Below, one piece after another: positions 37,748-62,293 of a DNA stretch of 64,000 bases. Within the stretch, counting starts at the first letter, position 1; each line of letters starts with the position of its first letter. The notes under the pieces are model-generated. The model made no database searches, was not told the origin of the DNA, and saw only the letters and a program-made list of their open reading frames with translations. Source of the stretch: Herbaspirillum sp. (lineage in GTDB: Bacteria > Pseudomonadota > Gammaproteobacteria > Burkholderiales > Burkholderiaceae_D); contig DASYEK010000116.1 of NCBI GenBank assembly GCA_036499085.1, positions 273-64,272 on the forward strand. Reading direction: 5' to 3'. Position numbers and translations under genes: made by a program.

Positions 37748-37774
37748 GGCCCGGGCAAAGCATTTGCCCGGGCC
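37748..37774. terminator. Perfect 12-bp hairpin at left end of redox island
   Basis: GGCCCGGGCAAA-GCA-TTTGCCCGGGCC just after the stop of the minus-strand oxidoreductase. Confidence 0.55.
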
Positions 37775-37787
37775 ATGGCCTAAACCC

Positions 37788-38705
37788 TTATGGACGAACG
37801 TTGATAATTGTTTTTCCGGGGATCCGCTTGGTTGGATTGAATGCCGCGACGGCGTCATCGAGGGACGCGATATTGCCGATATTCGTGTGCAGCCGCCCGT
37901 CCCGTACCCGCTGGACGATCTCGATCAGTTGGGCACGATCGGACTCGACGACGAAGTCGATCGCGACGCCGGCCGCCGGGCGCGTTTCGACCGGCCCGAC
38001 GACGGATACCAGCGTACCTCCTGCTCGAATGAGGTCCGCCGACCGCCTCTGGATGTCGCCGCCGATGACATCGAACACCAGGTCGACTCCGCCGACATCT
38101 TCCAGGGCATCGTTGTCGAGATCGATGAATTCGTTTGCGCCGAAGTCCAATGCCTTCTGACGATCAGCGGCGCGTCCCGTCCCTATGACGTAGGCGCCGG
38201 CTTCTCGTGCGAGTTGCGTTACCATCGACCCGACCGCACCAGCCGCGCCGTGCGCGATCACGCTTTGCCCTGCCCGAAGGCGGCCGTGTTCGAACAGTCC
38301 CTGCCACGCGGTCAGTCCCGAGATCGGCAAACTCGCGCCTACCGTGAAATCGACATCGCCCGGCAGCGGCGCCAGGTTGCGCGCCTCGATCGCAATGTAT
38401 TCGGCCAGGGTGCCGTCGCGATACCAGTCCGCGAGACCGAATACCCGTTGTCCCACGGACAGACCGGTCGTGCCGTAGCCGAGAGCAGTGACCACGCCCG
38501 CCAACTCATGTCCCGGGATCGACGGCGCTCGATCACGCTCTCCTCGATCCGTCCAGGTCGAAGGCCAGGTCAATTCAGTCCCGACGAATCCCGATGCATG
38601 AATCTGAACGATGACGTCGTTTATCGCGGCCGCCGGCTCGGGCCGCTCGGCCAGCGCCATCCCGGCCGTTCCCGCCGCCTGATTTTTCACAATGATTGCC
38701 TTCAT
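37788..38705 (-). CDS. NADP-dependent oxidoreductase (MDR family)
   Basis: IPGHELAGVV, GLTAWQGLF, HGAAGAVG, DLVFDVIGG. Confidence 0.88.
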   Translation of the reverse strand: MKAIIVKNQAAGTAGMALAERPEPAAAINDVIVQIHASGFVGTELTWPSTWTDRGERDRAPSIPGHELAGVVTALGYGTTGLSVGQRVFGLADWYRDGTLAEYIAIEARNLAPLPGDVDFTVGASLPISGLTAWQGLFEHGRLRAGQSVIAHGAAGAVGSMVTQLAREAGAYVIGTGRAADRQKALDFGANEFIDLDNDALEDVGGVDLVFDVIGGDIQRRSADLIRAGGTLVSVVGPVETRPAAGVAIDFVVESDRAQLIEIVQRVRDGRLHTNIGNIASLDDAVAAFNPTKRIPGKTIINVRP

Positions 38706-38764
38706 GGGGAAAATCTCCTTTAAGTTCGGCTCAAGTGGTCGAGCCGTTATGAGAACGATGTGCT

Positions 38765-39187
38765 TTATTTTCGCGCGGCAACCGGCGCGGACAAGGTTGC
38801 CAGATAAGCGATGATATCTCGCCGCTGCGCTACGTCATCAAGGGAAAAGTACATATTGTTTCCGGGCGCCATGTCTTGCGGTCCTTGCAGCCACTTGTCA
38901 AGGCGCTCCCTTGTCCAGATTCCCCGCAGTTGCTTCAGCGCTTGCGAGTATTCGTAGCCTGGGACACTCGCCACCTTCCTGCCGACCACGCCGCGATGAA
39001 GCGGGCCGACGCGATTCGCGTCCACCGCGTGGCATCCGCCGCACTTCGCTTCGTAAAGCGACTTGCCGTCGACCGCATTTCCGATCGATTGCGCCAATGC
39101 GCCCGGAGATGCGGGCAGCATCAAGGCGGCCGCCATGCACGCCGCGGCCAGGTGGCGCAACGGCCGCTGTGTCGACGAACGGAACAT
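38765..39187 (-). CDS. Class I cytochrome c (c2-like), exported
   Basis: Signal peptide, CGGCH heme motif, GPLHRGVVGR, PGNNM distal Met. Confidence 0.88.
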   Translation of the reverse strand: MFRSSTQRPLRHLAAACMAAALMLPASPGALAQSIGNAVDGKSLYEAKCGGCHAVDANRVGPLHRGVVGRKVASVPGYEYSQALKQLRGIWTRERLDKWLQGPQDMAPGNNMYFSLDDVAQRRDIIAYLATLSAPVAARK

Positions 39188-39191
39188 CGCC

Positions 39192-39776
39192 TTAGCCGAA
39201 CAGATATGCCTTGGCCTGTATCGGTTGGCCGAGCGCGTTGTTGAGGGTGGTCCAGTGCACCGCTTCATCGGTGGCGAGTTGCCCGAACAGATGCGCCAGC
39301 TTGCGATCCTGGAGTGCGGCGATCTGGCCGGCATAGGCATTGGTCGCGCCCTGTTCGAGACGCGTCGCCAGGGCGACGACATCGCCTTCGGATTTCAGCG
39401 CCCCGAGATTGAGCGATTTGGTGTATTCGGCATCGGTCTTCGGTTTGACAGGGTTGCCGCCGGCTTTGGAGATAAGCGCCATCAGCGAATCCCGATGCTG
39501 TTGATGGTGGCCGAGAAAGATCAATGCGGTTTTCAATGTTGCCGGCGTGAGCAATCCGCTGGCGCCCGCGATCTGGTATGCCGCAATTCCCTCATGTTCC
39601 AATGCGAGCGCGCCCTGCATGATGCCGACATCCTGGGCCGGATCGGCTTTTGCGCCTGCCGATATGCCGGCCAGCGCAATGGCGCCAAAGCCGGAAGCCG
39701 CAAAGCCGGCATTACGCAAGAATATCCGCCGCGGCGCTGCAGCCTGATCGAGATTTTCAATGAGATCGTTGGTCAT
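39192..39776 (-). CDS. Tat-exported ferritin-like domain protein
   Basis: RRIFL twin-arginine signal; di-iron ligand patterns LEHE, HHQQH, LEQGA, DEAVH; AGGAG RBS. Confidence 0.8.
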   Translation of the reverse strand: MTNDLIENLDQAAAPRRIFLRNAGFAASGFGAIALAGISAGAKADPAQDVGIMQGALALEHEGIAAYQIAGASGLLTPATLKTALIFLGHHQQHRDSLMALISKAGGNPVKPKTDAEYTKSLNLGALKSEGDVVALATRLEQGATNAYAGQIAALQDRKLAHLFGQLATDEAVHWTTLNNALGQPIQAKAYLFG

Positions 39777-40053
39777 GCTTTTCTCCTGTTCGACTGGTTT
39801 TGCATGGCAAGGCCCATGCTGGTTTGATCGCTGTTCGTTCACGGACCAGTCTACGGATGCCGCTTTGCCAAGGAAAGCGGCCATGCGACGAAATGGACGA
39901 TTTGGCGTATTTAAAGGATTTCCTGTATCGACATCGGCTGGCGGCAATGCCATCTGGCATAGGATCAGGCGACGCAGCTATCGCAGCCGGTCGCCGCCTT
40001 CAAACCGCGGTTGGAGGCATCGCCCCGATGGAACAAAATCGGTTGTCGGACGT

Positions 40054-40503
40054 TCACGATTCAAACAATTTTCGATAATCCCCATAACCCTGGCTTTCCA
40101 GTTCGGCGACCGGAATAAAGCGCAGCGATGCGGAGTTGATGCAATAGCGCAAACCGCCCGCTTCCACCGGTCCGTCCGGGAAAACGTGGCCCAGATGGCT
40201 ATCGCCGTGAGTCGAACGTGCTTCCGTGCGAATCATGCCGTGCGCCGTGTCGCGTTTCTCGACCACATTCGCGGCATCGATCGGTTTGGTAAAGCTTGGC
40301 CAGCCGGAGCGGCTGTCGAATTTGTCTGTCGAGGCAAACAAGGGTTCGCCCGATACCACGTCCACATAGATGCCGGGCACCTTGTTGTCCCAATACTCGT
40401 TCTTGAAAGGCAGTTCCGTTCCATTCTGTTGCGTCACCCGATATTGTTCAGGCGAGAGGCAAGAGACCGCTTCGGGATTTTTGATGTAATCAGGCATGTT
40501 CAA
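40054..40503 (-). CDS. msrB: Peptide-methionine (R)-S-oxide reductase
   Basis: [42 protein letters not shown]; start may be 40497. Confidence 0.95.
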
Positions 40504-40592
40504 ACTCCTTCAGAGAATGATGAATTGTCGCCAGAAATGCAGGCCGGCCTATCTGAATCGGCCGCCGCGGCCTCATCGCGGCAACATCGATT

Positions 40593-41081
40593 TCAGGTCG
40601 CGGGATGGGCATTCTTCAACAATGAAATAAAGCGATCGAGATCAAGCGTGAAACCATTGTCGATTACCACATTGTCGGGATCGATCGTGACAAACCAGGG
40701 CGTGCCGCCGGTTCGGTATTCTTCGATGGTTGCGGGATGGGAATTTCCAGGCGACGCAACATCATGGCCGAAAGGGATATGCAAATGGTGGCGCGCCTGA
40801 TTGAGCGCCAGTTTGTCGGACGTATTGACATCCTGGCCTTCAAAGACGGTCTGAATTACAGCAAATCCCACGCCACGATCCTGAAAGTGGTTCAGCAACC
40901 TTTTCAACACAGGGAATCCTAACGAATGGCAGCCCGGGCACCAGTGCTGGAAAAAGAACAACACTTTGTAACCCTCGCCGAGTTCGGCCAGTTTTAATTC
41001 AGGACGTTCCTTGCCATCGGCATCGATCCAGTAAGACGCCCGCAATTCCGGCGCCTGACGGCCGATAATTCCCATTTCCAT
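40593..41081 (-). CDS. Thioredoxin-fold redoxin (TlpA/AhpC-TSA-like), cytoplasmic
   Basis: HWCPGC motif, GTPW cis-Pro loop; AAGGAGG RBS; no signal peptide. Confidence 0.85.
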   Translation of the reverse strand: MEMGIIGRQAPELRASYWIDADGKERPELKLAELGEGYKVLFFFQHWCPGCHSLGFPVLKRLLNHFQDRGVGFAVIQTVFEGQDVNTSDKLALNQARHHLHIPFGHDVASPGNSHPATIEEYRTGGTPWFVTIDPDNVVIDNGFTLDLDRFISLLKNAHPAT

Positions 41082-41095
41082 GTCGGTTTCCTCCT

Positions 41096-41623
41096 TCAAG
41101 ATTGCGCTTTGGCGGCTTTTGCGCGGCCGGGAAGCCGCCAGTTGGGTCTGATGAAGTGACACGTATAGCCGCCAGGGTGGCGTTCAAGATAATTTTGGTG
41201 TTCCGGCTCGGCCTCCCAGAATGAACCTGCGGCCGCAACCTCGGTGACGATTTTTCCTGGCCACAACCCGGAAGCCTCGACATCGGCGATGGTCTCCGCG
41301 ATGGTCTGCCTTTGTCGCTCATCTGTATAGAACAGGGCCGACCGATAGCTGCCCCCGGTATCGTTACCCTGGCGATTGCTCGTGGTTGGATCATGGATCT
41401 GGAAAAAAAATTCCAGAATCTGGCGATAACTGATGGTTTCAGGGTTGAAGGTGATTTCGATCGCTTCGGCATGCGTGCCATGATTGCGGTAGGTTGCGTT
41501 GGGCACATCGCCACCGGTATAGCCGACGCGAGTGGAAACTACTCCAGGATAGCGCCGCAATAGATCCTGCATGCCCCAGAAGCAACCTCCGGCAAGGATC
41601 GCTTTTTCAATGTCTTTCGTCAT
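41096..41623 (-). CDS. msrA: Peptide-methionine (S)-S-oxide reductase
   Basis: [40 protein letters not shown]. Confidence 0.97.
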
Positions 41624-41756
41624 TTTGATATTCCTTAATGGAAAGTCTATCGGCGGAAAGGTCAGTGGATGACTATGTATCGCTCGCCTTGCGCAAGGTT
41701 GCGCATGCCATCACACGTTCGAGCCGACGCATTTGCTACAACTGCTATCGTTTTAA

Positions 41757-41889: not shown

Positions 41890-42852
41890 GTGTCAGACAA
41901 GCCTCTTTTACGAATTTCTCCTTCGGATCTGGATAGCCTGCTGACGATGCTGGACGTCAATTTCGTCCGTTTATCGGAATGCCTGGTCAGTCCCGGCTGG
42001 CAGTTGGAATTGGGTGATGTCGAAGCGCCGGGACTGCATTACAACCTTGCGGGGACCGGCCGCATGGTCGTCGGTGAAATGGTCATCGAACTCAGGCCTC
42101 ATACTCTGGTTATTCTCCCGGCGAGACAGAAATTCTATATTGAGGTCCCCTCGGACGATGCGGAAATGCCGGTGCCTGAAGTCCTGGATGGACGGGCCAT
42201 CGATTTTCCCTCCGGAGCAGTGCGCAGATATGTCGCCGGACGTTCGGATCCGCACATCATCATGATCTGTGGCTATTTCCGGGCAATGTATGGCACTTCC
42301 ATGGATTTGTTCGCCATGCTCACCATGCCGATCGTGGAGCAATTCGATGCATCCGATCATCTCGACACCAGGCTGAAACTGGCGATGACCGAACTGATCG
42401 CGCAAGAAGTCGGGGCGGGAGCGATGACGACGACGTTGCTGAAACAAGTGCTGGTGGTTCTGCTGCGGCGCTCATTGAGCAGCGCGGACCATTGGGTCGA
42501 ACGCTTTTCGATGTTCAGCAATTCGCATGTCGCTCGTGCATTCGCCGATATGGTGACGCAGCCCGGCGCTCCGCATTCCATACGAAGCCTCGCGCAGAGC
42601 GCATGCCTCAGCAGGTCGGCGTTCATGTCGCATTTCACCAGTCTTTTCGGACGCCCGCCAATGGAAGCCCTGCGCGAAATCCGCATGCGTCAAGCGGCCC
42701 TCCTGCTGGCCAACGACAGCATGCCGATCGATCAGATTGCCCGCGCGGTAGGTTATGAAAGCCGTAGCAGTTTTCTCCGGGCCTTCCGCAAAGCCTACGG
42801 TAACGATCCTTCGGACTATCGCTCCAAAGGGCGGCGCGTCCCAGAACTGTAG
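41890..42852 (+). CDS. AraC regulator with cupin sensor domain and two RclR-like Cys (AraC-1)
   Basis: LSECLVSPGW and IMICGYF cysteines; SLAQSACLSRSAF and VGYESRSSFLRAF HTHs; GTG start. Confidence 0.9.
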   Translation: MSDKPLLRISPSDLDSLLTMLDVNFVRLSECLVSPGWQLELGDVEAPGLHYNLAGTGRMVVGEMVIELRPHTLVILPARQKFYIEVPSDDAEMPVPEVLDGRAIDFPSGAVRRYVAGRSDPHIIMICGYFRAMYGTSMDLFAMLTMPIVEQFDASDHLDTRLKLAMTELIAQEVGAGAMTTTLLKQVLVVLLRRSLSSADHWVERFSMFSNSHVARAFADMVTQPGAPHSIRSLAQSACLSRSAFMSHFTSLFGRPPMEALREIRMRQAALLLANDSMPIDQIARAVGYESRSSFLRAFRKAYGNDPSDYRSKGRRVPEL

Positions 42853-42872
42853 TATTTCTGCAATCGCCGATT

Positions 42873-43832
42873 TCAATTCGCGCGCAGTCCCACCACATTG
42901 AACAGTTGTTGCCGATCGGTCCAGGCCTGCTCCACCTGCCATCCATTGGCTATCGCCAGGGCAGAAAAATCTTCAAGGCTGTATTTGCGAGAGCTTTCGG
43001 TATGGATGGTTTCACCGGCTTCGAAGTCATAGCTGAAATCATTGACGGTGACTGTTTGCGCCACCTGACTGACCAGATGCATTTCGACCGCGGATTCGAC
43101 ACTATTCCAACGGACAGCGTGCCGAAAGCCGGACACTGCGAAATCGCCGCCCAGCTCACGATTGATTCGTGTCAATAGATTGAGATTGAATCGTGCAGTG
43201 ACCTCTTGTGCATCGTCATAGGCAGCCAGCATTGTTTCCGTATCTTTTTTCAAGTCGAAACCGATGATGGCGACGCCGTCCTTGCCCACGTGTCGACGCA
43301 TGCGTTGCAGGAATGCGCCGGCCTCTGCGACGTCGAGATTGCCGATGGTGGAGCCTGGAAAGAATGCCACCCGACGCCCCTCGGGCAAAGCGGCCGGCAG
43401 TTCGAAATCGATCATGAAATCTGAAACCATCGGGTCCACCTGGAGCTTCGGAAAGCGCTCGCGAATGCGCACTACCGTCTGTTCCAGGAATTCGGCGGCG
43501 ATATCGATGGGGATATATTGCCGTGGCGTGCATAGCGCTGCAATCAGCGTTTCGGTCTTGATGCCGGCGCCGGCGCCATACTCAAGCAGCGTGGCGCCGC
43601 TGCCTGCAAAGTCGGCTATGGCGCTCGCGTTATCCAGCAGAATCGCGGATTCGGTGCGTGTCGGATAGTACTCCGGCAATTGCGTGATTGCTTCGAACAG
43701 TTCCGAACCTGCATTGTCGTACAGCCATCGGCAGGGGAGGTTTTTCCGACGATGCGAAAGTCCGTTGATTACATCGGCCAGGAAGGCATTCCGATGGTGA
43801 TTCGGGCTCATTGCCTTATAGATCATGTCCAT
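42873..43832 (-). CDS. egtD: L-histidine N-alpha-methyltransferase (hercynine synthase)
   Basis: KNLPCRWLYD..GSELFEAITQLPEYYPTRTE, EYGAGAGIKT, FFPGSTIGN, AYDD..VTARFNLN, IHTESSRKY. Confidence 0.92.
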   Translation of the reverse strand: MDMIYKAMSPNHHRNAFLADVINGLSHRRKNLPCRWLYDNAGSELFEAITQLPEYYPTRTESAILLDNASAIADFAGSGATLLEYGAGAGIKTETLIAALCTPRQYIPIDIAAEFLEQTVVRIRERFPKLQVDPMVSDFMIDFELPAALPEGRRVAFFPGSTIGNLDVAEAGAFLQRMRRHVGKDGVAIIGFDLKKDTETMLAAYDDAQEVTARFNLNLLTRINRELGGDFAVSGFRHAVRWNSVESAVEMHLVSQVAQTVTVNDFSYDFEAGETIHTESSRKYSLEDFSALAIANGWQVEQAWTDRQQLFNVVGLRAN

Positions 43833-43943: not shown

Positions 43944-44053
43944 TATTTTGTGTTCCGCAACTGTTAATAAGTGAGCAAAAATCGTAGAGTCGCTCGGAAA
44001 TGGAAACGCTTGCCAGCCCCGAAAATGAACGACCTGACGAAAGTTTCAAAAGC

Positions 44054-45049
44054 ATGACCGGCAAACTGATTTTACGAATTGCACCTTCAGACTTGGATAA
44101 TCTGATGAGTACATTGGAAGTGAATTTCGTCAAATTGGCAGAATGCCTGGTGAGCACGGGCTGGCGATTGGTATTGCAGGGAATCGATGCGCCTGGAATC
44201 CACTACAACCTGAGTGGCGTGGGCAAAATGATCGTAGGCGATCAGCCGCCGATCGAACTGCTGCCGCACACGCTGGTCATCGTCCCGCCCGGGCACTCGG
44301 TCCGCATTGAGGTCCCGGCGCCTCAATGCCCGTCGTCATCGTTGAATACCGTGGAAAACCGCTGGCAGGCGCCTGTGCCCGGCGCCCTGCGCAGATTCCG
44401 GGCCGGCGACGGCGAACCGCACATCATGTTGATCTGCGGACACTTTCGGGCTTCCTACGGTGCATCGCTGGATCTGTTTGCGGGCTTGCGTGCGCCGATC
44501 GTCGAACAATTCGAAGCCATCGACCAACTCGATCGAAAACTGACCTCGGCGCTCGCGGAGCTAGTGGCGCAGGAGGTCGGAATGGGCGCGATGACCACCA
44601 CATTGTTGAAACAAGTTCTGGTGGCCCTGCTGCGCCGCTCCCTCGGTTCCGTCAGTTTGTGGCTCGAAAGATTTCCAATACTGAGCGACCCGCTGATTGC
44701 GCGCGCGTTCACCGATATGGTTTCGCACCCTGGAGCCCCGCATTCGGTGCAAAGCCTGGCGCAAAGCGCCTGCCTGAGCCGATCCGCATTCATGGCCCGA
44801 TTCGCCAGCCTGTTCGGTCAAACCCCGATGGCGGCGCTACGGGAACTGCGCATGCGCCAGGCGGCGATGCTATTGACCGCGAATAACCTTTCGATATTCC
44901 AGATCGCGCATAGTGTGGGTTACGCGAACCGCAGCAGTTTCCTGCGGGCTTTCCGTAAAGTGTATGGCTGCGATCCGTCGCATTATCGTAGCGGAGATCG
45001 ACCGCCCATCGATGAAAAAATCCCGCTATCGGAAGAAATGAATGAATAA
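44054..45049 (+). CDS. AraC regulator, close paralog of AraC-1 (AraC-2)
   Basis: LRIAPSDLD, LAECLVSTGW, MLICGHF, SLAQSACLSRSAF; upstream in-frame ATG at 44000 possible. Confidence 0.9.
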   Translation: MTGKLILRIAPSDLDNLMSTLEVNFVKLAECLVSTGWRLVLQGIDAPGIHYNLSGVGKMIVGDQPPIELLPHTLVIVPPGHSVRIEVPAPQCPSSSLNTVENRWQAPVPGALRRFRAGDGEPHIMLICGHFRASYGASLDLFAGLRAPIVEQFEAIDQLDRKLTSALAELVAQEVGMGAMTTTLLKQVLVALLRRSLGSVSLWLERFPILSDPLIARAFTDMVSHPGAPHSVQSLAQSACLSRSAFMARFASLFGQTPMAALRELRMRQAAMLLTANNLSIFQIAHSVGYANRSSFLRAFRKVYGCDPSHYRSGDRPPIDEKIPLSEEMNE

Positions 45050-45124: not shown

Positions 45125-45571
45125 ATGACCGACAAAACACTTCTAAAGAACACCATGCTGGACCTCGAAACCGAAAGGTTGGCTTATTCCGAGCGTGCTT
45201 ATGCCGATTATCTATGCCGTAGCGCACGCGACCAAAGCCAGGCAGGAGACCACGGGCAGGACTCGCAGCAGTTCGAGGATGCCGAAATAGCACAGGCGTT
45301 CGAATGTCCCATCGAAACGCATCAGGAAGCGCTCGCGAAATTACGCCATATCGATTTCGGCCCGAAGTCGGAAGTGCGGGAAGGGGCTGCCGTCCGCTTC
45401 AATGACCGCTGGTTCGTGATTGCAATCGCTACAGAAGAATTCACCTGCGACGGCATCACCTATATGGGCATATCAAGCCAGGCGCCAATCTTCGAGGCAA
45501 TGCAAGGCAAGGCCGCCGGCGATGTCTTTGAATTCAACCGCCGAAAAATCCGGGTGGAAGCGGTGGCTTGA
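45125..45571 (+). CDS. GreA/GreB-like protein
   Basis: N-terminal coiled-coil with AGD tip; C-terminal ISSQAPIFEAMQGKAAGDVFEFN matches the Gre C-terminal domain pattern. Confidence 0.6.
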   Translation: MTDKTLLKNTMLDLETERLAYSERAYADYLCRSARDQSQAGDHGQDSQQFEDAEIAQAFECPIETHQEALAKLRHIDFGPKSEVREGAAVRFNDRWFVIAIATEEFTCDGITYMGISSQAPIFEAMQGKAAGDVFEFNRRKIRVEAVA

Positions 45572-45666
45572 TCGACTTCATTCGAAGTCGCTTGCTACAC
45601 GGATTCAACAAGAAATGGCGGCATCTGCGCAACCTTTTCCATTTTGCGGGTTTACTTTCATTAGAC

Positions 45667-45852: not shown

Positions 45853-46917
45853 ATGACCCGCACAATTTCTGAAAAACGCGCCATCTTCCGCGCCCTCCAT
45901 GAACAAGGTTGTTTCGTGCTGCCGAATCCCTGGGACGTGGGTAGCGCCCGCTATCTGCAAGGCCTGGGCTTCAAGGCCTTGGCGACAACAAGCGCGGGTT
46001 ATGCATGGTCGCAAGGCCTGCCGGACGGCGCCGCCACGCTGGAAATGGCATTGGCCCACTTGCGCGACATAGTGGCCGCAACCGATCTGCCGGTCAACGC
46101 CGATTTTGAACATGGCTTTGCCGCCGATCCCGAAGGGGTCGCGAAAAACGTCAAGCTCGCCATCGAGACCGGCATAGCGGGATTATCGATCGAGGACAGT
46201 ACCGGCGACGCCGCCAAACCTTTGTTCGCCATCGAAGAAGCAAGCGCCAGGATACGGGCTGCACGCAACGCAATCGACAGTGCTGGCGGCGACGTCCTGC
46301 TGATCGGCCGCGCGGAAAATTTCTTCATCGGAAAACCAGACCTGCAGGACACCATTGCCCGTTTGAAGGCTTATTCCGCGGCCGGCGCCGACTGCCTCTA
46401 TGCACCTGACATCGAGACGCGCGAAGACATTGCCGCAATAGTGGCCGCGGTTGCGCCGAAACCCTTCAACCTGTTGATCCGTTCGGACAACGGCCTGACC
46501 TTGCAGGACGCCGCCGATCTCGGCGTCCGCCGCATCAGCGTCGGCGCCGCGTTGGCACGCTCTGCGTGGGGCGGGTTCATGCGTGCGGCGCAAACCATTT
46601 CGCGAGGCCGTTTCGACGGTTTCGCCGATGCCGCGCCGGGCGCGCAACTGAATGCCTTCTTCCGTGTCTCAGGCGAAGAGCCATTGATGAAGCAGCCCGC
46701 GCACATTGTCGGCAAAGTCGAATATCGTGAAGGCGAAGGACCTTTGCTGGAGATCCCCTGCGGCGTTGTGGAAGTCGAAACCAATGCGGTCGATGCAATC
46801 TTCAGTTGGCCGGACGGCAAGTCCCATGGACTTGCGGCGATGCCGGTCGCCAATTTTTGCCGGTATGTCGCCGATGGAGCGATCACCGTCGCCGCGAAGC
46901 CGCCATTGCGTACTTAG
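45853..46917 (+). CDS. Isocitrate lyase/PEP mutase family protein with ~76-aa C-terminal extension
   Basis: LPNPWDVGSA, ALATTSAG, PVNADFE.G, GLSIEDS, AGADCLYAP; extension begins MKQPAHIVGKVEYREG. Confidence 0.85.
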   Translation: MTRTISEKRAIFRALHEQGCFVLPNPWDVGSARYLQGLGFKALATTSAGYAWSQGLPDGAATLEMALAHLRDIVAATDLPVNADFEHGFAADPEGVAKNVKLAIETGIAGLSIEDSTGDAAKPLFAIEEASARIRAARNAIDSAGGDVLLIGRAENFFIGKPDLQDTIARLKAYSAAGADCLYAPDIETREDIAAIVAAVAPKPFNLLIRSDNGLTLQDAADLGVRRISVGAALARSAWGGFMRAAQTISRGRFDGFADAAPGAQLNAFFRVSGEEPLMKQPAHIVGKVEYREGEGPLLEIPCGVVEVETNAVDAIFSWPDGKSHGLAAMPVANFCRYVADGAITVAAKPPLRT

Positions 46918-52795: not shown

Positions 52796-52832
52796 GGTAT
52801 GCCTCTTTCATCAGGGGGGATTGGGAACCTAC

Positions 52833-52895
52833 ACTTTAGGCGTACTCGATATCGATTTCGAGACTGTATGAGATCAATAAAATGCTGAAAAGGAT
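52833..52895 (-). promoter_or_regulatory. Predicted promoter of the AhpD-like gene, with inverted AraC-type half sites
   Basis: Minus strand ATCCT-N16-ATCTC-N5-GTCTC-N21-TAAAGT. Confidence 0.4.
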
Positions 52896-53002
52896 CAAAA
52901 CAACCGGGCAATCCTTTACCCGAATGCGCGCGCTTCAATACGATGCCAGCCGTCTTGTCGGGATCGGGATTCAGGTGCCGGCCGTGTAGATGCGCGCCTC
53001 AT

Positions 53003-54058: not shown

Positions 54059-54910
54059 TCATTGCGATGCCCCTTTTGCGGCTGTTCGCATGGCCGATTC
54101 GCGTGCGCGCGCAATATCGTCGGCGATAGCGGCGCGGTGCGGATCTCCCTCGGGCAAGATGGCTGCCAAGCGTTCCCAGTAGGCGGACGCCTCGGCAAAA
54201 CGGCCTGCCTCGAACGCGGCCATGCCGGCCAGCTTCAGGCTGGTCGCCTCTTGTGGATCGCCAGCCAGGGCTTCGTCGGTCAGCGCCTTCAGCTTGGGCG
54301 TCCATTGCCGGCCACCCGCGAAATACAGGGCTTCCGCCCAGCGTCCCAGCAGTTGCGGCGGCCGGCCCGCCAAATTGGCGGCGCGCTCGAACGCCCGGGC
54401 CGCGTCGGCCATGCGTTCCTGCGCCGCGTAGGCGCGACCCAGCAATGACCAACCTTCGGCCGAGTCTGGTGTTGCCGCCAGTAATGCTTCCAGGCGCATG
54501 GCGACTTTCTCGACATTTTGCGCTTTGAGGCCGGCATCCTGTTGTTCCTGCATCAGTTGATCCGACGAACCCCAGTGCAGGTACAACACCAGCGCCAGCA
54601 GCGGCGTCGACAGCGCCGCGACCAGGGGAACAGTTCGCCCCAAGGGAGCGTCTGCCGGGTGCGGGGCGTCCTGCGCATCGTCCAGCAATACGCGGGCCGC
54701 CTCGTCCCGCCCGGCGTTGAACTGTTCCGCGTCAAGCGTGCCGGCGTCGCGCAGCGTTTCCAATTCGTTCAGACGTTCGCGGTAGACGTCGACGTTCAGG
54801 CTTGCACGGTCGGCGTTGAAACCCCTGCGAGGGCGGCGCAATTGGGGCAGCAGGATGAAAGCCGGAGCTGCTGCAAGAAGCAGCCCCGCGTACAACCAGA
54901 ACATGGTCAT
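54059..54910 (-). CDS. ccmI: Cytochrome c maturation protein CcmI/CycH (TPR)
   Basis: N-terminal TM, NVDVYRERLNEL, P..AEGWSLLGRAY TPR; ATGA overlap with ccmH. Confidence 0.85.
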   Translation of the reverse strand: MTMFWLYAGLLLAAAPAFILLPQLRRPRRGFNADRASLNVDVYRERLNELETLRDAGTLDAEQFNAGRDEAARVLLDDAQDAPHPADAPLGRTVPLVAALSTPLLALVLYLHWGSSDQLMQEQQDAGLKAQNVEKVAMRLEALLAATPDSAEGWSLLGRAYAAQERMADAARAFERAANLAGRPPQLLGRWAEALYFAGGRQWTPKLKALTDEALAGDPQEATSLKLAGMAAFEAGRFAEASAYWERLAAILPEGDPHRAAIADDIARARESAMRTAAKGASQ

Positions 54911-55395
54911 GTATCTGACTCCGTGGATGGGGCTGCGTCCTGCAGCAGACTGGCCAGGCGAAGCCGCTCGGCGTCGGACAATGGGCTTTCGGTTGCCGGA
55001 CGTGAGCGGCGCCGGTTCGCGACGATGGCCGCCAAGGCCGCGCCGCCGGCCAGCAACAGCAGGGCTGGGCCGAACCACAGCAGCATGGTGCGGGAGGATA
55101 GCGGCGGGTCGTAAAGGACGAAGTCGCCGTAGCGCGAGACCATGAAGTCGACGATCTGTTCGTCGCTTCGGCCTTCTACCACCATGCGCCGGACCTCGCC
55201 GCGTAAATCGTGGGCGATGGGCGAACTCGATTCCGCAATGTTCTGATTCTGGCACTTGGGACAGCGCAGTACCGAGGCCAGATCGTAATAGCGTTGACGC
55301 TGGGCGTCGTCAGGGAATTCGAGGACCTCGATGGCGGCATGGCTGGCGTTCAGCATGCCAAGGACAAGAACGAGCGCGGCGATCAGGCGTTTCAT
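54907..55395 (-). CDS. ccmH: Cytochrome c maturation protein CcmH
   Basis: LRCPKCQNQNIAES, FMVSRYGDFVLYDPP. Confidence 0.95.
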   Translation of the reverse strand: MKRLIAALVLVLGMLNASHAAIEVLEFPDDAQRQRYYDLASVLRCPKCQNQNIAESSSPIAHDLRGEVRRMVVEGRSDEQIVDFMVSRYGDFVLYDPPLSSRTMLLWFGPALLLLAGGAALAAIVANRRRSRPATESPLSDAERLRLASLLQDAAPSTESDT

Positions 55396-55931
55396 CGCGC
55401 GGCCTCGCGTAGCAGCTTGTCGTAGACCGGCGCCAGTTCTTCCCGCCAGACACGCTCGTCAATGATGCCGACGTACTTGTCGCGAATGACGCCTTTGCCA
55501 TCGATGAAGAAGGTCTCGGGGGCGCCGTACACGCCGAGGTCCAGGCCCAGTGTGCCGGCGGCGTCCTCGATGGTCAGCCGATATGGGTTGTGCAATGTGC
55601 GCAGCCAGTGCTGCGCGGCGTTGCGGTCGTCCTTGTAATCGACCCCGTAGATGACGACACCCTGGCCGGCCAGCCTGGTCAACACCGGGTGTTCCTCGCG
55701 GCAGGATGGGCACCATGTCGCCCAGACGTTGACCAGTGCAGGCCGGCCCTTCAAGTCGTCGCGAGTCAGCATGCGCGATGTTTCCTCGAGCGCCGGTAGC
55801 GCGAAGGCGGGAAACGGCTTGCCGATCAGCGCGGAGGGCAGCCGGGTGGGATCGAGGAACAGGCTGCGATATAGCACTACCGCGAGAAACAGGAACAATG
55901 CCGGCGGCAGCAGCAACAGCAATCGTTTCAT
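55392..55931 (-). CDS. ccmG: Thiol:disulfide interchange protein CcmG/DsbE
   Basis: LPSALIGKPFP, NVWATWCPSC, GVYGAPETF. Confidence 0.95.
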   Translation of the reverse strand: MKRLLLLLPPALFLFLAVVLYRSLFLDPTRLPSALIGKPFPAFALPALEETSRMLTRDDLKGRPALVNVWATWCPSCREEHPVLTRLAGQGVVIYGVDYKDDRNAAQHWLRTLHNPYRLTIEDAAGTLGLDLGVYGAPETFFIDGKGVIRDKYVGIIDERVWREELAPVYDKLLREAAR

Positions 55932-57898
55932 GGCCGCGCTCCGGCAATGCGCATGTCCGGAGCCGGCCGGGCCGCCCGGGGGCGATAGCGCCGATCGGAC
56001 GCCGCCAGCAAGCCGCCCAGGGCCATCATCAATGCGCCGAGCCAGATCCAGCGCACGAACGGTTTGATCTGCACCCGCACCGCCCAGGCGCCGTCGGCCA
56101 GCGGCTCTCCCAATGCCACGAACAGGTCGCGCGTGAAGCCGCCCTGAATGCCGGCCTCGGTGGTGGAAGTCTGCTGGACGCGATAGACGCGCTTTTCCGG
56201 GTGCAGCATGGCGACCTCGCGGCCATCGCGAATGACTCGTACACTGCCGCGATCGCTGGTGTAGTTAGGCCCCTGGCGCCGGGCTGTGCCTTCGAACACA
56301 AACCGATAGCTGCCCAGTTCCATGGCGGTGCCGGGCGCCATGCGCAGCTCCCGCTCCAGGCTGCCGGTGCTGGCCAGCACGACGCCCAAAGCGCACACGG
56401 CGAAGCCGAGGTGGCCCAGATGCATGCCCCAATAACTGCGCCCCAAGGCCGGCAGGCCCTTGCGCAGCCCTTGGTGGCGCGTCTTGTCGCGGATGTCGCG
56501 CAGGCCCGCCAGCACCATCCATGCGGCCAACAGGCAACCGGCCGCCACCGCCCAACGCGACCGCTCGTGCAGGGTAGCTGCGGCCAGCGCGACCAGCAGG
56601 CTGGTCGCCAGCACCGGTGCGAGCATGCGCGCCAGCCAGCGTGCCGGCGTGTCTTTCCAGCGCGTGAGCATGCCGACGGCAGCCGTCGTCATCAGCAGCG
56701 CCATCAGCGGCACGAACATGGCATTGAAATAAGGCGGGCCGACCGACAGCTTGGCGCCGGTCAGTGCATCGAGAATCAAGGGGTAGAGCGTGCCCAGCAG
56801 GATCATGGCCGCGGCCACCGACAACAGTAGATTGTTCACCAGCAGCAGCGTTTCGCGCGACCAGATCCCGAAGCCGGCCCGGCTCTTGACCACCGGCGCG
56901 CGCAGCGCGAATAGCGCAAGCGAGCCGCCGACCACTACCAGCAGGAACGCCAGCACAAACACGCCGCGCGTCGGATCGGTGGCGAAGGCGTGTACGGAGG
57001 TCAGCACGCCCGAGCGAACCAGGAAAGTGCCCAGCAAGCTGAGCGAGAACGCGGCGATGGCAAGCAGCACGGTCCAGCTCTTGAACACACCGCGTTTTTC
57101 GGTTGCGGCCAGGGAGTGGATCAACGCCGCCCCCACCAGCCAGGGCATGAACGATGCGTTTTCGACGGGATCCCAGAACCACCAACTGCCCCATCCCAGC
57201 TCGGAATAGGCCCACCACGACCCAAGGGCGATGCCCAGGCCGAGAAAGGCCCATGCCACGGTTGTCCAGGGGCGCGACCAGCGTGCCCAGGCAGCGTCGA
57301 GCTTGCCGTCCAGCAGGGCCGCGATGGCGAAGGCGAATGCCACCGAGAAGCCGACGTAGCCCATGTAAAGTATGGGCGGATGGACGATCAGGCCGATGTC
57401 CTGCAGCAAGGGATTGAGGTCGCGGCCATCGGCGGGGACGTTGGACAGCAAGCGGGCGAAAGGATTGGAGGTGCCGATCAGGAACAGCAGGAAACCCGTG
57501 CTGATCATGCCCATCACGGCGAGAACCCGGGCCAGCATCGCCTCCGGCAACTGGCGGGCGCCGAGCGAGACCGCGAATGTCCAGCCGGACAGTATCAACA
57601 CCCACAGCAGCAGCGAGCCTTCGTGCGAGCCCCAGACTGCGCTGAACTTGTAGTACCAGGGCAGCGCGCTGTTGGAGTTTTGCGCGACATAGGCGACCGA
57701 AAAATCATCCGTCAGGAAAGCATGGGTCAGGCACGCGAATGAAAACATCAGGAATGCAAATTGCCCCCAGGCGGCCGGCCTCGCCAACGCCATCCAGCGC
57801 CGGTCGCCGCGCCAGGCGCCGGCCAGCGGGATGCTCGCTTGCACCAGGGCGAGGCATAGCGCCAGGATCAGGGCCAGGAGTCCGAGTTCGGGGATCAT
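55928..57898 (-). CDS. ccmF: Heme lyase CcmF
   Basis: [53 protein letters not shown]. Confidence 0.97.
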
Positions 57899-58362
57899 CG
57901 AGCGGGCTCCTGTTTGACGGGCGGGAAATGGCCGGCCGCACCGGCTTGCTTCAGTGCATGCATGGCTTCGGGCGGCATGTAGTTTTCGTCGTGCTTGGCC
58001 AGGATTTCGTCGGCCTGCAGGCTGCCGTCGTCGTCGAGCCTGCCCGAGGCGACAATGCCCTGGCCCTCGCGAAACAGGTCCGGCAGGATGCCCTGGTAGC
58101 GCACGACGATGCTGCGGGCGCCGTCGGTGACGTTGAATCGCAGCATCAGCGAGTCTTGCGTGCGCTTGAGCGATCCGGACTCGACCATACCGCCGGCGCG
58201 GATGCGGGTGCCGTGCGGCGCTTCGCCGGCGGCGATCTGGCTTGGGGTGTAGAACAGGTTAATGTTTTCTTGCAGCGCGGCCAATGCCAGCGCCGAAGCA
58301 GCGCCGGCGCCGAATACCAGGGCCAGTATCCAGTACAGGCGCTTCTTGCGGGCGGGGGTCAT
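57895..58362 (-). CDS. ccmE: Heme chaperone CcmE
   Basis: [33 protein letters not shown] (heme-binding His/Tyr). Confidence 0.96.
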
Positions 58363-58538
58363 GGCGATGCCTCCCGGCGCCGGCGGCGTATCCGGTCGTT
58401 CAAGTAGCGGCGGCGCGCCAGCAGGGGTAACGCGATATTCAAGGCCATCACTACCAGGCACAAGCCATATGCGCTCCACACGTAGGCGCCATGGCCGCCC
58501 ATGGCGAGAAAATCGGCGAACGAGGCAAAGGCAATCAT
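58359..58538 (-). CDS. ccmD: Heme exporter protein CcmD
   Basis: [16 protein letters not shown] plus TM and basic tail; overlaps ccmC and ccmE by 4 nt. Confidence 0.88.
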
Positions 58539-59290
58539 GTCCGGTCCCTGAGCAGTCGAGCGATCTCGGCGTCGGCCCAGCGGCTGCCGGCCTCGCGGCG
58601 CAGCACTTCCAGGCGCATGCGCGCGAACAATACCGCCCCAAAGAAGCAATAGAAGCCCAGTACCGCCAGCAGCAACGGCAGCCACATCTGCGCCGGCATG
58701 GCGGGTTTGTGCGCGAGCGAAAAGCTGGCGGGCTGATGCAGGGTGTTCCACCATTCGACCGAATACTTGATGATGGGGATGTTGATGACGCCGATCACGG
58801 CCAGCAACGCGCAGCCGCGCGCCGCGCTGTCGCGGTTGATGATTGCCTGGCCCAATGCGATCACGCCCAGATACAGGAACAGCAGGATGAGCATGGAGGT
58901 CAGGCGCGCATCCCATACCCAATAGGCGCCCCAGGTGGGCTTGCCCCAGATCGAGCCGGAGGTCAGCGCGATGACCGTCATCCAGGCGCCGATCGGCGCG
59001 GCCTGCTTCAGGGCGATGTCGGCCAGCTTCATTTTCCAGATCAGGGAAATCATGCCGGCAGCAGCGAGCATGACGTAAATGGATTGCGCCAGCAGCGCCG
59101 CGGGCACGTGGATATAGATGATGCGGAAGCTGTCGCCCTGCTGGTAGTCCGGCGGCGCGAATGCCAGGCCCCATGCCAGGCCGACTGCAAGCAGCAGCGC
59201 GCTGGCGGCGGCCAGCCAGGGCAGGCACTTGCCGCTCATGTCGTGGAACCATTTGGGCGAACCCCATTTATGTAACCAGATCCAGTTCAT
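58535..59290 (-). CDS. ccmC: Heme exporter protein CcmC
   Basis: [26 protein letters not shown] domain, WWNTLHQ. Confidence 0.96.
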
Positions 59291-59336
59291 TCAAGTCGCT
59301 CGCAAGGGTTAGTCGGGCCTGCGCCGTGGATGCGTG

Positions 59337-60008
59337 TCATTCGGCGACGCTGATGGACAGCCCCGCGGCAACGGCAAACGGCGTCAGGGTGATTGCCAGC
59401 ACGGCGAGGCAGGCCAGCCACAGCAGATGCCCCGCGACCGGCAGATTCTGCAAGGCGGCCTGCAGGGCGCCGCTGCCCAGGATCAGCACCGGGATATACA
59501 GCGGCAGAACCAGCAAGGCCAGTAATAGGCCGCCGCGCCGCAAACCGACCGTGAGTGCCGCGCCGACGGCCCCCAGCAGGCTGAGCACCGGCGTGCCCAG
59601 CAGCAGCGACAGCAACAATGTCGGGAGGCAATGCGCCGGCAGGCCAAGCATCAGGGCCAGGAACGGGGCCAGCACAACCAGCCCAAGGCCGCTGCAAAGC
59701 CAGTATGCCGCTACCTTGGCCAATGCCAGCACCGTCAGCGAGTGCGACGAAAGCACCCATTGTTCCAGCGAGCCGTCCTCGAAATCGGTACGGAACAGGC
59801 CATCCAGCGAGAGCAACACGGCCAACAGCGCCGCGACCCATAGCAAGCCGGGGGCGACATTTTGCAGAATCAGCGATTGCGGTCCCAGCGCCAGCGGAAA
59901 CAGCGCGACGACTACGGAGAAGAACACCAAGGGATTGGCAAGGTCTGCGGGACGACGGCATAACAGGCGTAGCTCTTTATTGAACAGGGAGACAAAGGTC
60001 ATGCTCAC
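59337..60008 (-). CDS. ccmB: Heme exporter protein CcmB
   Basis: [32 protein letters not shown]; GTG start. Confidence 0.95.
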
Positions 60009-60694
60009 GGGGCGTACTGTCCCAGATCAAGGTCGGCGTAGGTTTGCGCTCGCCGGGTCAGCTCATGATGCGTGGTCAGCGCCACCGTGCCGCCGCGCTC
60101 GCAATGCATTGCCAGGTGCGATTCCAGTTGCGCTATGCCGGCAGCGTCCAGTGCCGTGAACGGCTCATCCAGCAACCACAGCGCGGGCGCATCGGGCAGG
60201 TACAGGCGTGCCAGCGCGATGCGGCGCTGCTGCCCGGCCGACAGCGCATGGCATGGCGTATCCTCGAAGCCGCGCAAGCCGACCGCGGCCAGGGCCTGCC
60301 CGATTTCGGCGGTTGCGCCGCGCCCGTGCAAGGCTCCCAGCCAGGCCAGGTTTTCCGTGGCGGTCAACAGCGCCTTGACGCCGGCGGCATGGCCTATCCA
60401 CAGCAGCCGGGAAGCCAGGGCGCCGCGCTGCGAGGCGAGATCCCGGCCGAACAAGCTGACATGGCCGGCGGCCGGGCGGGCCAGCCCGCACAGCAGGCGC
60501 AGCAGGCTGCTTTTGCCGCTGCCATTGGGGCCGCGGATGCGCAACATGGTGCCGGCATGCAGCCGAAAGCTCACGCTCGCGAATAGCTGGCGTTGGTCGC
60601 GTTCGCAGCCGAGAGCGACTGCGTCGAGCACGGGACCGGCGGCGTCCGCGCCGGCATCCTGGAAGCCGCGAAATCTGTGCATGGCGTACCGCAT
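60005..60694 (-). CDS. ccmA: Heme ABC exporter ATPase CcmA
   Basis: [36 protein letters not shown]; start codon uncertain. Confidence 0.95.
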
Positions 60695-60719
60695 CTACAG
60701 CCTGGCGTCCATGCCGCGC

Positions 60720-61298
60720 TTATCGCTTCAGGATCGGATAGCCGTCGGTGTAAATCCAGTCCGATGCTTGCGCCGGCACGTGGCAGGACTGACAGTCCTT
60801 CTTGAAGTCCGTGGACGTTGTCTTTTTGGAGTCGGTCGCGTCGAACCAGGACCAACCCCAACCGTCGCCCCAAAGCTTGTTCTTTGGAAAGCGGCCGACG
60901 TCATCCTTCACCATGACAAACCAGCCGGCGAGAGTGTCGGCACTGCTTACGGTTCCGGTGGTCATGGGTTTGGTAGCGGCCTTGAACACTTCCTTCACCA
61001 GAACGGTGCCATCGGGAAAGTGCCCGGTCTTGCGGTATGCGGCGATCGTTCCGGGAGATGCGTAGACAACGTGCATCTGTTTTGAGCCCGGGCCTTTGTC
61101 ATCTGCCACGGCCCAGGTTCCCAGCATCTGATAAGTGGTCCGATAGTCCGCGGGAACGCGCATATTTCCCTGGTTGTCGACCGCGGCCGCGGTCTTTGGG
61201 CCGAACTGCGAGCGTGTGTTCGTCTGCCCGAAGGCAGCGACGTGGACCATCATGGATAATCCTACCAGGGCGACGCCCAAGGCACTTATGATTCTCAT
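60720..61298 (-). CDS. Cytochrome P460 family protein B (divergent)
   Basis: Signal peptide, P.DYR..Y, HVVY, GHFPDGTVLVKE, VMVKD, GWGW, C-terminal CQSCH, DWIY. Confidence 0.85.
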   Translation of the reverse strand: MRIISALGVALVGLSMMVHVAAFGQTNTRSQFGPKTAAAVDNQGNMRVPADYRTTYQMLGTWAVADDKGPGSKQMHVVYASPGTIAAYRKTGHFPDGTVLVKEVFKAATKPMTTGTVSSADTLAGWFVMVKDDVGRFPKNKLWGDGWGWSWFDATDSKKTTSTDFKKDCQSCHVPAQASDWIYTDGYPILKR

Positions 61299-61345
61299 GG
61301 CACTGTTTCCTTGTGTTGGTGAATCGGCGGCATTCATCGACGATT

Positions 61346-61942
61346 TCAGTCGTCCAGCAATGGATAGAACTGGGTCCAGACATCGTCTTTCTTGGCGTTC
61401 GCCCGGTGGCAGAACGCGCATTCCTCATTGGGTTTCACCTTCGCGGTCGCTGCCTTCGGTTCGAAGTGGTTGAAGTTGTAGTAGCCCCATCCCCCGGTGG
61501 CGACGTAACGCTTGGAATCCTTGACGGTCACGTCGGCGCCGTTAAACTTCCCGGGAAAGTAGCCGCGCCCGGATGCCTCGGTGCGCGATCCGTCCGGGTT
61601 CTGGGCCGGAAGCAGCAGTTGCAATTCCTTGAAGAAGATCGTTCCCTCCGGGAATTCGCCGGTCTTCTTGTAAATCGCATACGAGCCCGGCTCGATGTAG
61701 ACGTTGTGGAATTCAGGGAAATTGGCCTTGCCGCCGTTGAGCGCGTTAGGCGTGAGCGGTGAGCCGACGTATACCCACTCATGAAAATTCTTCGGCAGGA
61801 TCAGGTCGCCTGATTTCGTATATTCGGGGAGATAGCGCTTTCTCGCTTGCGTGCCCCCGTCGCTGGACGACGACTGGGCGAATGTGGTTGTTATGACAAG
61901 CGCGCTGAGACCCGCAGCAGCAATCAGTAAGGGAATACGCAT
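61346..61942 (-). CDS. Cytochrome P460 family protein A (Nitrosomonas CytL-like)
   Basis: GDLILPKNFHEWVYVG..TPNALNGGKA.F, KKTGEFPEGTIFFKE, SGRGYF, VKDSKR, CAFCH, VWTQFYPLL; GGAGAAAAGG RBS. Confidence 0.9.
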   Translation of the reverse strand: MRIPLLIAAAGLSALVITTTFAQSSSSDGGTQARKRYLPEYTKSGDLILPKNFHEWVYVGSPLTPNALNGGKANFPEFHNVYIEPGSYAIYKKTGEFPEGTIFFKELQLLLPAQNPDGSRTEASGRGYFPGKFNGADVTVKDSKRYVATGGWGYYNFNHFEPKAATAKVKPNEECAFCHRANAKKDDVWTQFYPLLDD

Positions 61943-61979
61943 ACCTTTTCTCCTTCTCTCCACGAATAGTTGAGCGCTC

Positions 61980-62031
61980 ATCCTATCTTTGTCGACGGTT
62001 CCAATGGTCTCGAAATTGTTCCAATTCGTCC
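61980..62031 (-). promoter_or_regulatory. Predicted AraC-activated promoter of the P460-ccm operon
   Basis: Minus strand GGAC-gaattggaacaatttcg-AGAC-N21-TAGGAT. Confidence 0.65.
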
Positions 62032-62293
62032 AAATATTCGAATTGGATTCATAACCGACCGCATATGCGAATCTTCGTTGTCCGGGGCATCAAACAGATG
62101 CATCCGGATCTGCGGGCTTTAGGCCAAGGAGTATCGTAGGACCGCGTCGCGGCGGTCGCGCGGCGGCAATGGAAGGCGGATCAATTGGCAAGGGTCCATT
62201 CGGCGAGCAAAGACGCACGCAATCTTCCCAATCATGCTGTGCGCTGATCCTGAGGAATGCCGCGCTGACGGCGGCCTTGTATTTGGAACCGGC

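Follow-up and report, generated by a model that had tools for sequence, protein, structure and literature searches.

Recurrent linkage of RclR-like regulators, two cytochromes P460 and a complete Ccm operon in an accessory region of Herbaspirillum sp., a putative stress-defence package

We analysed a stretch of 64,000 nucleotides (the window) from Herbaspirillum sp. (assembly GCA_036499085.1), which covers nearly all of contig DASYEK010000116.1 (C116) of a 4.0-Mb genome in 144 contigs that is 93.6% complete (G000). Beside ordinary core genes, the window holds an accessory region of about 26 kb that begins near 37.7 kb and reaches 62 kb or beyond. It encodes three AraC-type regulators (AraC1, AraC2 and AraC3), MsrA and MsrB, the histidine methyltransferase EgtD, a Kef-type antiporter, a flavoprotein disulfide reductase (FDR), a quinone oxidoreductase-like protein (QOR), an AhpD-like CxxC protein, two cytochromes P460 (P460a and P460b) and a complete cytochrome c maturation (Ccm) operon (Table 1). 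The same gene families are linked again in other lineages, and several of them are related at the family level to the RclR, RclA and RclX proteins of reactive-chlorine defence. The reading that we favour, with slightly better than even confidence, is that of a stress-defence region, acquired long ago and since rearranged, which was assembled around a native dps gene out of at least three modules that travel together elsewhere and that would be induced by a thiol oxidant. No publication on this gene cluster was found in our literature search.

Recurrence of the linked set in other lineages

Genes were mapped by a choice of open reading frames guided by third-position GC content (GC3), followed by Pfam and NCBIfam scans. 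The window was compared with 43 other species of the genus by DNA searches and profile searches, named genomes were scanned with the FDR, and metagenome contigs were scanned with P460b.

The scan of named genomes returned 80 loci, 79 of them without any package neighbours, while almost all of these neighbours were present at the best locus, that of Herminiimonas aquatilis CCUG 36956. In this strain and in the complete genome of a second Herminiimonas species (G310), the genes lie on one strand in the order AraC-kef-FDR-egtD-b561-P460b-P460a-QOR-msrB-msrA-ccmA-I-DUF417, with gaps of 0-250 bp, and egtD begins 7 bp past the FDR gene. The identities of the Herminiimonas proteins to those of the window were 69% for AraC1, 69% for Kef, 71% for the FDR, 62% for EgtD, 82% for P460b, 71% for P460a and 60-87% for CcmA-I. 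The best conserved package protein was QOR, with 81-82% amino acid identity to the Herminiimonas copy encoded between P460a and msrB, and with 64-83% on metagenome contigs, where it is encoded beside P460. A second Herminiimonas locus, about 10-25 kb off and on the same strand, carries AraC3 (78%), two AhpD-like genes, a PNPOx gene (80%), a second FDR-like gene (FDR2), a second QOR gene (QOR2, 79%) and an AraC gene, in that order. In G310 these genes, together with those of a redoxin (61%) and of the 148-aa protein (48%), lie on the same strand within about 35 kb, and a hydrolase (70%) is encoded near the package.

Subsets of the package were found in other genomes. G345 and G251 carry P460a-QOR-msrB-msrA-ccm-DUF417, and G094 and G265 carry P460b-b561-P460a-ccm followed by two AraC genes. 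The closest sampled relative within the genus (G015) carries AraC-msrA-FDR-egtD in one direction and AraC3 next to AhpD, and has neither P460 nor ccm; its AraC1 homologue was 69% identical to that of the window. The metagenome scan showed the tandem P460 pair on 21 of the 29 contigs of at least 4.5 kb. Parts of the package are repeated in shuffled order on soil metagenome contigs: L176 carries P460b-P460a-QOR, then egtD, then msrA, msrB, an AhpD-like gene and AraC3 (77%); L187 carries AraC-DUF417-P460b-P460a-QOR-msrB-ccmA-I; L175 carries AraC-QOR-AhpD-like-P460b-P460a; and L177 and L250 carry further subsets. The DUF417 gene is present in the versions of Herminiimonas, G345 and G251, G094 and L187. 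Such repeated linkage in several lineages, with the gene order shuffled, is the mark of joint selection on these genes. An earlier note on this DNA, made from its letters alone, had proposed a co-selected package, and this part of its proposal is supported by the one-strand supercluster of Herminiimonas and by contigs L175, L176 and L187.

Two gene fragments were observed in the Herminiimonas versions, one of 82 residues, 51% identical to MsrA, between kef and the FDR gene of H. aquatilis (L119:3752-3967), and one of 45 residues, P460b-like, upstream of the redoxin gene of G310. These fragments are remnants of past rearrangements of the package.

G310 and H. aquatilis share the segment that contains the Herminiimonas package at 99.4-100% identity, except over its first 9 kb or so, which are 93.5% identical. 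Comparison of G310:C1 about 1,001,000-1,190,000 (L123, L124, L138-L140, L146, L252, L254, L255) with contigs C2, C6 and C4 of H. aquatilis showed that the shared segment begins at about 1.001-1.004 Mb of G310 C1 and ends somewhere in the interval 1.16-1.19 Mb, a length of roughly 156-190 kb, while its syntenic flanks are 72-81% identical between the two species. A tRNA-Ser(GGA) gene (1,003,897-1,003,987) stands at the left edge of the segment, with a tyrosine integrase gene (1,004,804-1,005,301) about 800 bp away. These identities indicate what appears to be a very recent large exchange between the two species, and a package carried in such a segment behaves as a transferable trait. A VirD4-type coupling protein (PF02534) was not found in G310 or in G000.

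Regulators, reductase and kinship to rcl systems

Alignment with Escherichia coli RclR showed that Cys21 and Cys89 are invariant in all three AraC proteins of the window, and both cysteines were kept in 15 of the 18 package-linked AraCs. In RclR, these two residues form the activating disulfide (PMC7464077). The best-scoring named NCBIfam family for all three AraCs was RclR (NF040475). The FDR scored 763 bits on NF004992 (cut-off 629), and RclA was its best match among solved structures, the best solved relatives being 6kgy and 6kod. Its GGTCVNAGC motif aligned with GGTCINIGC of RclA (CxxxxC) and its HPTVSE motif with HPSMSE (HPxxSE). The DUF417 protein of Herminiimonas was 29% identical to E. 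coli RclC (E 1e-14). The AraC3 gene is followed by the genes of the AhpD-like CDVC protein, a hydrolase and a PNPOx-like protein, and the same gene families follow AraC3 in Herminiimonas. In Pseudomonas aeruginosa, the AhpD-like RclX is encoded next to RclR and induced by it; HOCl and HOSCN induce the pair, and both proteins give protection against these oxidants (PMC7950407).

Comparison with the rclR-rclABC locus of E. coli showed that a Cupin_6 AraC with both redox cysteines and a class-I FDR with CxxxxC and a C-terminal His-Glu motif are common to the two systems, while the DUF417 membrane protein is shared with rclC in the Herminiimonas version only. The window differs from E. coli by the presence of three regulators instead of one, by the absence of RclB and RclC from this genome, and by the position of the FDR gene, which is the last of a dps-kef-FDR string whereas rclA is divergent from rclR. 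Relative to E. coli rcl, the package adds Msr, EgtD, Kef, QOR, the AhpD-like protein, two P460s and the whole Ccm system. The P. aeruginosa RclR-RclX (RcsA) pair is alike by family and adjacency, with an RclR-like AraC beside an AhpD-fold CxxC protein, but here the AraC3 and AhpD-like genes are co-directional (they are divergent in G015) and continue into the hydrolase and PNPOx-like flavoprotein genes. The known reactive-chlorine systems, rcl and RclR-RclX, are small and come from host-associated bacteria. The package would be a much larger environmental version, in which RclR-, RclA-, RclC- and RclX-like parts are joined to Msr, hercynine synthesis and Kef, with the unexpected addition of two P460s and their private haem-attachment system.

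The promoter of the AhpD-like gene was kept between G000 and G310 and comprises two TTGATC half-sites 21 bp apart, GTCTCGAAAT, then GCCTAAAGTG; the AhpD-like proteins behind it are only about 34% identical. An exact copy of GTCTCGAAAT was found only upstream of AhpD and P460b, and its occurrence with one mismatch was not significant. Two other candidates for a shared operator were rejected. The 14-mer AAAAGGATCAAAAC has two occurrences, one of which is the ribosome-binding region of AraC1 according to the comparison with G310 and G015, and CCATnnGTCCnATT, considered as a general operator, is common only to the paralogous AraC1 and AraC2 promoters. A perfect palindrome, TGCGCAA-GG-TTGCGCA, at 41690-41705 in the divergent spacer between msrA and AraC1 could serve a dimeric regulator, distinct from the AraCs, as its operator. 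Upstream of the PEP-mutase-like gene, at 45626-45634, TGCGCAACC is found once more.

In the mechanism that we propose, a thiol-reactive oxidant would oxidise the Cys pair of the AraC regulators and thereby switch on the modules. Judged from sequence, the rcl-like parts would favour oxidants of the hypohalous, chloramine or HOSCN type, which are the most likely inducers, the P460 pair would favour hydroxylamine or NO, and QOR and Kef would also fit electrophiles. Module 1, in which AraC1 and AraC2 flank msrA-redoxin-msrB, egtD, Kef and the RclA-like FDR, would serve the repair or buffering of oxidised sulfur, with QOR as a probable functional part of it. No signal peptide was found in MsrA or MsrB, which are therefore cytoplasmic. 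The cytoplasmic enzymes would repair Met-sulfoxide and reduce the oxidant or its metal or disulfide products, while Kef would acidify the cytoplasm. In module 2, AraC3 stands upstream of the AhpD-like CxxC protein, the hydrolase and the PNPOx-like flavoprotein and would act on them through the conserved promoter. In module 3, the genes of two presumably periplasmic P460s would be transcribed first, followed by those of a full System I haem-attachment machinery of their own, and the P460s would handle a small periplasmic N- or halogen-oxide species.

The conservation of QOR and the presence of Kef also fit a regulon directed at electrophiles. Its Cys-pair AraCs would sense quinones or electrophiles of plant, fungal or humic origin, QOR, the PNPOx-like protein, the hydrolase and the AhpD-like protein would detoxify them, Kef would be protective, and P460 and ccm would be passengers. 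Classical protection by Kef is gated by glutathione adducts, and the Kef protein of the window has a TrkA_N gate. Among the cytoplasmic proteins of the package, QOR shows the highest conservation (79-83% across lineages), and its gene is present twice in Herminiimonas and on L177; a DJ-1/PfpI-AraC regulator is encoded nearby (29311-30411), and the origin of the sample is soil. However, P460a and ccmA of Herminiimonas enclose QOR, msrB and msrA, all at spacings of 30-250 bp, so P460 and ccm are not passengers there, and MsrA and MsrB with an RclA-like reductase fit oxidants better than alkylating electrophiles. We consider an electrophile regulon quite improbable.

The cytochrome P460 pair and its private Ccm system

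The two P460s of the window are 27% identical to each other. P460b was close to the P460s of Nitrosomonas sp. AL212 and N. europaea (E 1e-44 to 1e-42). The motifs GTIFFKE and GTVLVKE of the two window proteins aligned with GTVIVKE of 6amg, and the cross-link Lys was kept in both; the position of Glu97/Ala131 is occupied by Asp in P460b and by Phe in P460a. P460b thus resembles the Nitrosomonas type in its fold family, C-terminal CxxCH, cross-link Lys and distal carboxylate. The package differs from the P460s of ammonia oxidisers and methanotrophs in its heterotroph-type Burkholderiales host, its divergent tandem pair, its private ccmABCDEFGHI and its Msr- and rcl-like surroundings.

The System I genes ccmA, B, C, D, E, F, G, H and I were all present and intact. 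Identities of 83-86% to CcmF were confined to P460-linked copies; any other copy among 400 genomes of the family reached at most 62%, and the CcmF of four other families of the order 57-60%. No donor could be named for the ccm genes, since CcmF was 57-62% identical to every CcmF from outside the package, inside and outside the family. The host genome has a System II ResB on contig C5, and Herminiimonas keeps a second, ordinary CcmF (58%), so the private Ccm is found in a System II host as well as in a host with its own System I. NrfEFG and the extra CcmF/CcsA systems are alike in that an extra haem-attachment system is encoded beside the special cytochrome that it presumably serves. To our knowledge, only the lyase part is duplicated in these dedicated maturation paralogues, for non-CxxCH motifs, whereas the package has a full nine-gene System I with ordinary CxxCH cytochromes.

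Hydroxylamine oxidation and NO binding are known P460 chemistry, and the region could instead be a defence against reactive nitrogen or hydroxylamine. P460 and Ccm would then oxidise hydroxylamine or bind NO released by nitrifiers of soil or water biofilms, Msr, the FDR, EgtD and Kef would counter peroxynitrite or nitrosative damage, and the likeness to rcl would reflect general thiol-switch regulators. The proximity of P460b to Nitrosomonas P460, with its cross-link Lys and distal carboxylate, speaks for this explanation, as does the tandem P460b-P460a pair, which is the most constant element of the package and lies at the heart of every version. Soil is listed as the sample type of the metagenome that holds this sequence (bioRxiv 10.1101/2024.12.20.629349) and drinking water is the source of H. 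aquatilis (PMC5670224), both of them nitrifying habitats. Yet E. coli RclR is unresponsive to NO or peroxynitrite (reviewed in PMC7464077), the partners that resemble RclA, RclC and RclX suggest chlorine or thiocyanate oxidants, and module 1 is kept in G015 without any P460. On balance, a package directed chiefly at nitrogen species or hydroxylamine seems unlikely to us.

A bolder proposal, to which we give little credence, is that the P460s, QOR, the b561 of relatives and the private Ccm form an inducible electron chain, controlled by the RclR-like regulators, that destroys a periplasmic H2N-X or halogen oxidant such as monochloramine, hydroxylamine or a related compound. If this were true, the oxidant would be destroyed before reaching the cytoplasm; P460 would thereby be connected with reactive-chlorine or chloramine defence for the first time, and this would be the first stress regulon to carry its own complete cytochrome c maturation system. 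One type strain with the package, H. aquatilis CCUG 36956, comes from drinking water and can be cultured, so that such questions are open to direct testing; they include the role of P460 in non-nitrifiers, the reason why a cytochrome needs its own Ccm, and the survival of water and soil bacteria under oxidant disinfectants.

Accessory status, boundaries and gene inventory

DNA searches of the 43 other species of the genus gave no collinear match to the region, only scattered single genes, and profile searches found cytochrome P460 and CcmF_C in none of them. The region is therefore not a block of syntenic core genes. G015 shares CHRD-AI2E-DAO with the window (52-90% amino acid identity) up to position 37621 and then has other genes; because synteny stops there, the left edge was placed in the 166-bp spacer 37622-37787. 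An assembly or binning artefact at this junction was rejected, since the gene order from AI-2E/DAO to P460a is identical on an independent 29.9-kb JGI metagenome contig, which makes the junction of core and region real. The right end is lost, as the contig stops at 64.3 kb in multi-copy repeats. A repeat at 62092-62212 has 71-76% matches on many contigs of several species of the genus, one copy lying about 1.3 kb downstream of the egtD module of G015, and the repeat at 63893-63980, which ends the contig, has 80-98% matches on many contigs of this genome and others. Neither repeat belongs to an Rfam family, and no Rfam family was matched anywhere in the window. As the earlier note had remarked, no integrase is in view; we found no tyrosine integrase on contig C116 and no tRNA in the window.

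The description of a single island of about 24.5 kb in the earlier note was not upheld, as dps is native, phyletic patterns vary from module to module and the right boundary is missing; the region is a mosaic and not one clean insert. Most species of the genus have a dps match of 72-75% nucleotide identity, at a distance of 2.5-4 kb from a homologue of the window gene 25940-26515, and by this evidence dps is native to the genus. That homologue is a TMEM175-type K+ channel gene, found near dps in G008 (C1:1172435-1175873), G012, G014 and G001; the two genes are 21 kb apart in this genome. AraC3, AhpD and the hydrolase had matches within the genus in G015 and G043 only, on three contigs in G043, and DNA searches of the genus gave no match to kef.

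Recent transfer into this genome was rejected. The window was 65-80% identical at the nucleotide level to the Herminiimonas package copies, against 71-78% for core genes, and each copy has the GC content of its host; because the identity does not exceed the core level and the GC content matches the host, the acquisition is old.

The favoured reading has to be weighed against a number of observations. FDR relatives at 57-65% identity (79 loci) and two orthologues at 70-72% within the family (G225 and G295) have no package neighbours, which means that the linkage is lineage-limited, and the FDR was rejected as a marker of the package for the same reason. G015 has module 1 without P460 or ccm, while G265 and G094 have P460 and ccm without module 1, and these complementary absences make the modules separable. 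The AraCs scored 75 (AraC1), 81 and 135 (AraC3) bits against an RclR equivalog cut-off of 400, and so are not RclR orthologues by that standard; their identity to RclR is only 24-31%. The FDR scored 336.5 bits on the RclA model NF040477, below its cut-off of 740, and is 35% identical to E. coli RclA. No Pfam match to RclB (DUF1471) or RclC (DUF417) was found among the open reading frames of the region, tblastn with the Herminiimonas DUF417 protein gave nothing in this genome, and the b561 that accompanies P460 elsewhere was not found in it. No k-mer of at least 8 common to more than three promoters of the region was found. The composition is only mildly atypical, with a GC content per gene of 53-67% against 61% for the genome and a dinucleotide signature at the 54-95th percentile, the 95th being reached by ccm alone; a deviation this mild implies that any acquisition is old. 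The soil source argues against the favoured reading as well, chlorine disinfectants not being expected there.

Some expectations of the earlier note fared accordingly. The likeness to rcl that it had seen holds at the family level, through the two cysteines of the AraCs, the relation of the FDR to RclA and the AhpD-like gene after AraC3, but reached no equivalog cut-off. The compositional profile that it had suggested gave a mild signal only, and chlorinated water, which it had named as a possible source, was not supported by a metagenome listed among soil samples.

The same observations bear on the possibility that the region has no functional unity, and that unrelated stress and haem-maturation operons have gathered in a recombination-prone variable region, the look of a defence system arising when many common stress genes are read together. 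The differing phyletic patterns of the modules, the native dps, the solitary FDR orthologues and the lack of a common promoter motif are all compatible with this, and both 6.3-34.1 kb and everything beyond 37.7 kb differ from G015, so the whole contig is variable. But another genus has the same families closely packed on a single strand, independent metagenome contigs have them reshuffled, the P460-linked ccm forms a clade of its own, and every version is accompanied by Cys-pair AraCs. A mere gathering of unrelated operons has, in our judgement, a low probability.

The features of the region are listed in Table 1. Every gene reported in the earlier note was recovered at its place by the Pfam and NCBIfam scans; its inventory stood as far as it went, but did not include QOR, the 148-aa protein, the PEP-mutase-family protein, the PNPOx-like flavoprotein and the hydrolase.

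Table 1. Features of the accessory region in window coordinates
Feature	Position	Strand	Basis and remarks
QOR, NAD(P)H quinone oxidoreductase-like, PIG3/zeta-crystallin family	37788-38705	-	Pfam ADH_N/ADH_zinc_N; TIGR02824
Mono-haem cytochrome c	38765-39187	-	CGGCH; 140 aa
Ferritin_2/DUF4439 protein	39192-39953	-	RRIFL twin-arginine motif; 253 aa
msrA - thioredoxin-like CPGC redoxin - msrB operon	40054-41623	-	Pfam PMSR, AhpC-TSA/Thioredoxin_2, SelR
AraC1, Cupin_6 + HTH_18, RclR-like, divergent from msrA	41890-42852	+	Pfam
egtD, histidine N-alpha-methyltransferase, stand-alone	42873-43832	-	Pfam Methyltransf_33, E 3.5e-104
AraC2, Cupin_6-AraC, AraC1 paralogue (about 60% aa)	44000-45049	+	Pfam
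148-aa protein, no family	45125-45571	+	No Pfam match; 48% to Herminiimonas-cluster homologue (tblastn, G310)
PEP-mutase/isocitrate-lyase-family protein	45853-46917	+	Pfam
Dps	47062-47538	+	Pfam; single copy in the genome
Kef-type K+/H+ antiporter, Na_H_Exchanger + TrkA_N gate	47605-49314	+	Pfam
FDR, RclA-like, family NF004992	49385-50806	+	Pfam Pyr_redox_2 + Pyr_redox_dim
PNPOx-like flavoprotein	50814-51284	-	Pfam
Alpha/beta hydrolase	51379-52149	-	Pfam
AhpD-like CxxC protein (CDVC), CMD/AhpD family	52256-52795	-	Pfam/NCBIfam
Conserved promoter 5' of AhpD-like gene	52828-52900	-	Alignment of G000 and G310 non-coding DNA
AraC3, Cupin_6 + HTH_18	53003-53986	-	Pfam
ccmABCDEFGHI, complete System I cytochrome c maturation operon	54059-60694	-	Pfam
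P460a	60720-61337	-	PF16694; signal peptide; C-terminal CxxCH
P460b	61346-61942/61981	-	PF16694; signal peptide; C-terminal CxxCH

The ferritin-like protein and the cytochrome c are encoded by two overlapping genes and are not a fusion. No homologue of this pair was found in the clusters of Herminiimonas, G265 or G094, and the pair seems to be particular to the package version of this genome. Second copies of msrA (77%), msrB (56%) and egtD (48%) are located on contigs C33, C3 and C83 of the same genome, respectively.

Homologues of the genes at 4277-6337 directly adjoin CHRD (34144-34740 in the window) on contig C135 of G015, so about 28 kb of the window (6337-34144) are also inserted or rearranged relative to G015. 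This stretch contains a low-GC autotransporter, a JmjC-cupin, MFS, GGDEF and IlvD proteins, and the DJ-1/PfpI-AraC regulator. An 80% paralogue of AraC3 is encoded at C28:25338-26273 of G000, and a 79% paralogue of the LysR gene at 62807-63880 of the window lies at C97:9340-10281. DNA resembling that of C97 adjoins DAO in G015, a hint of the present location of the ancestral DAO neighbour.

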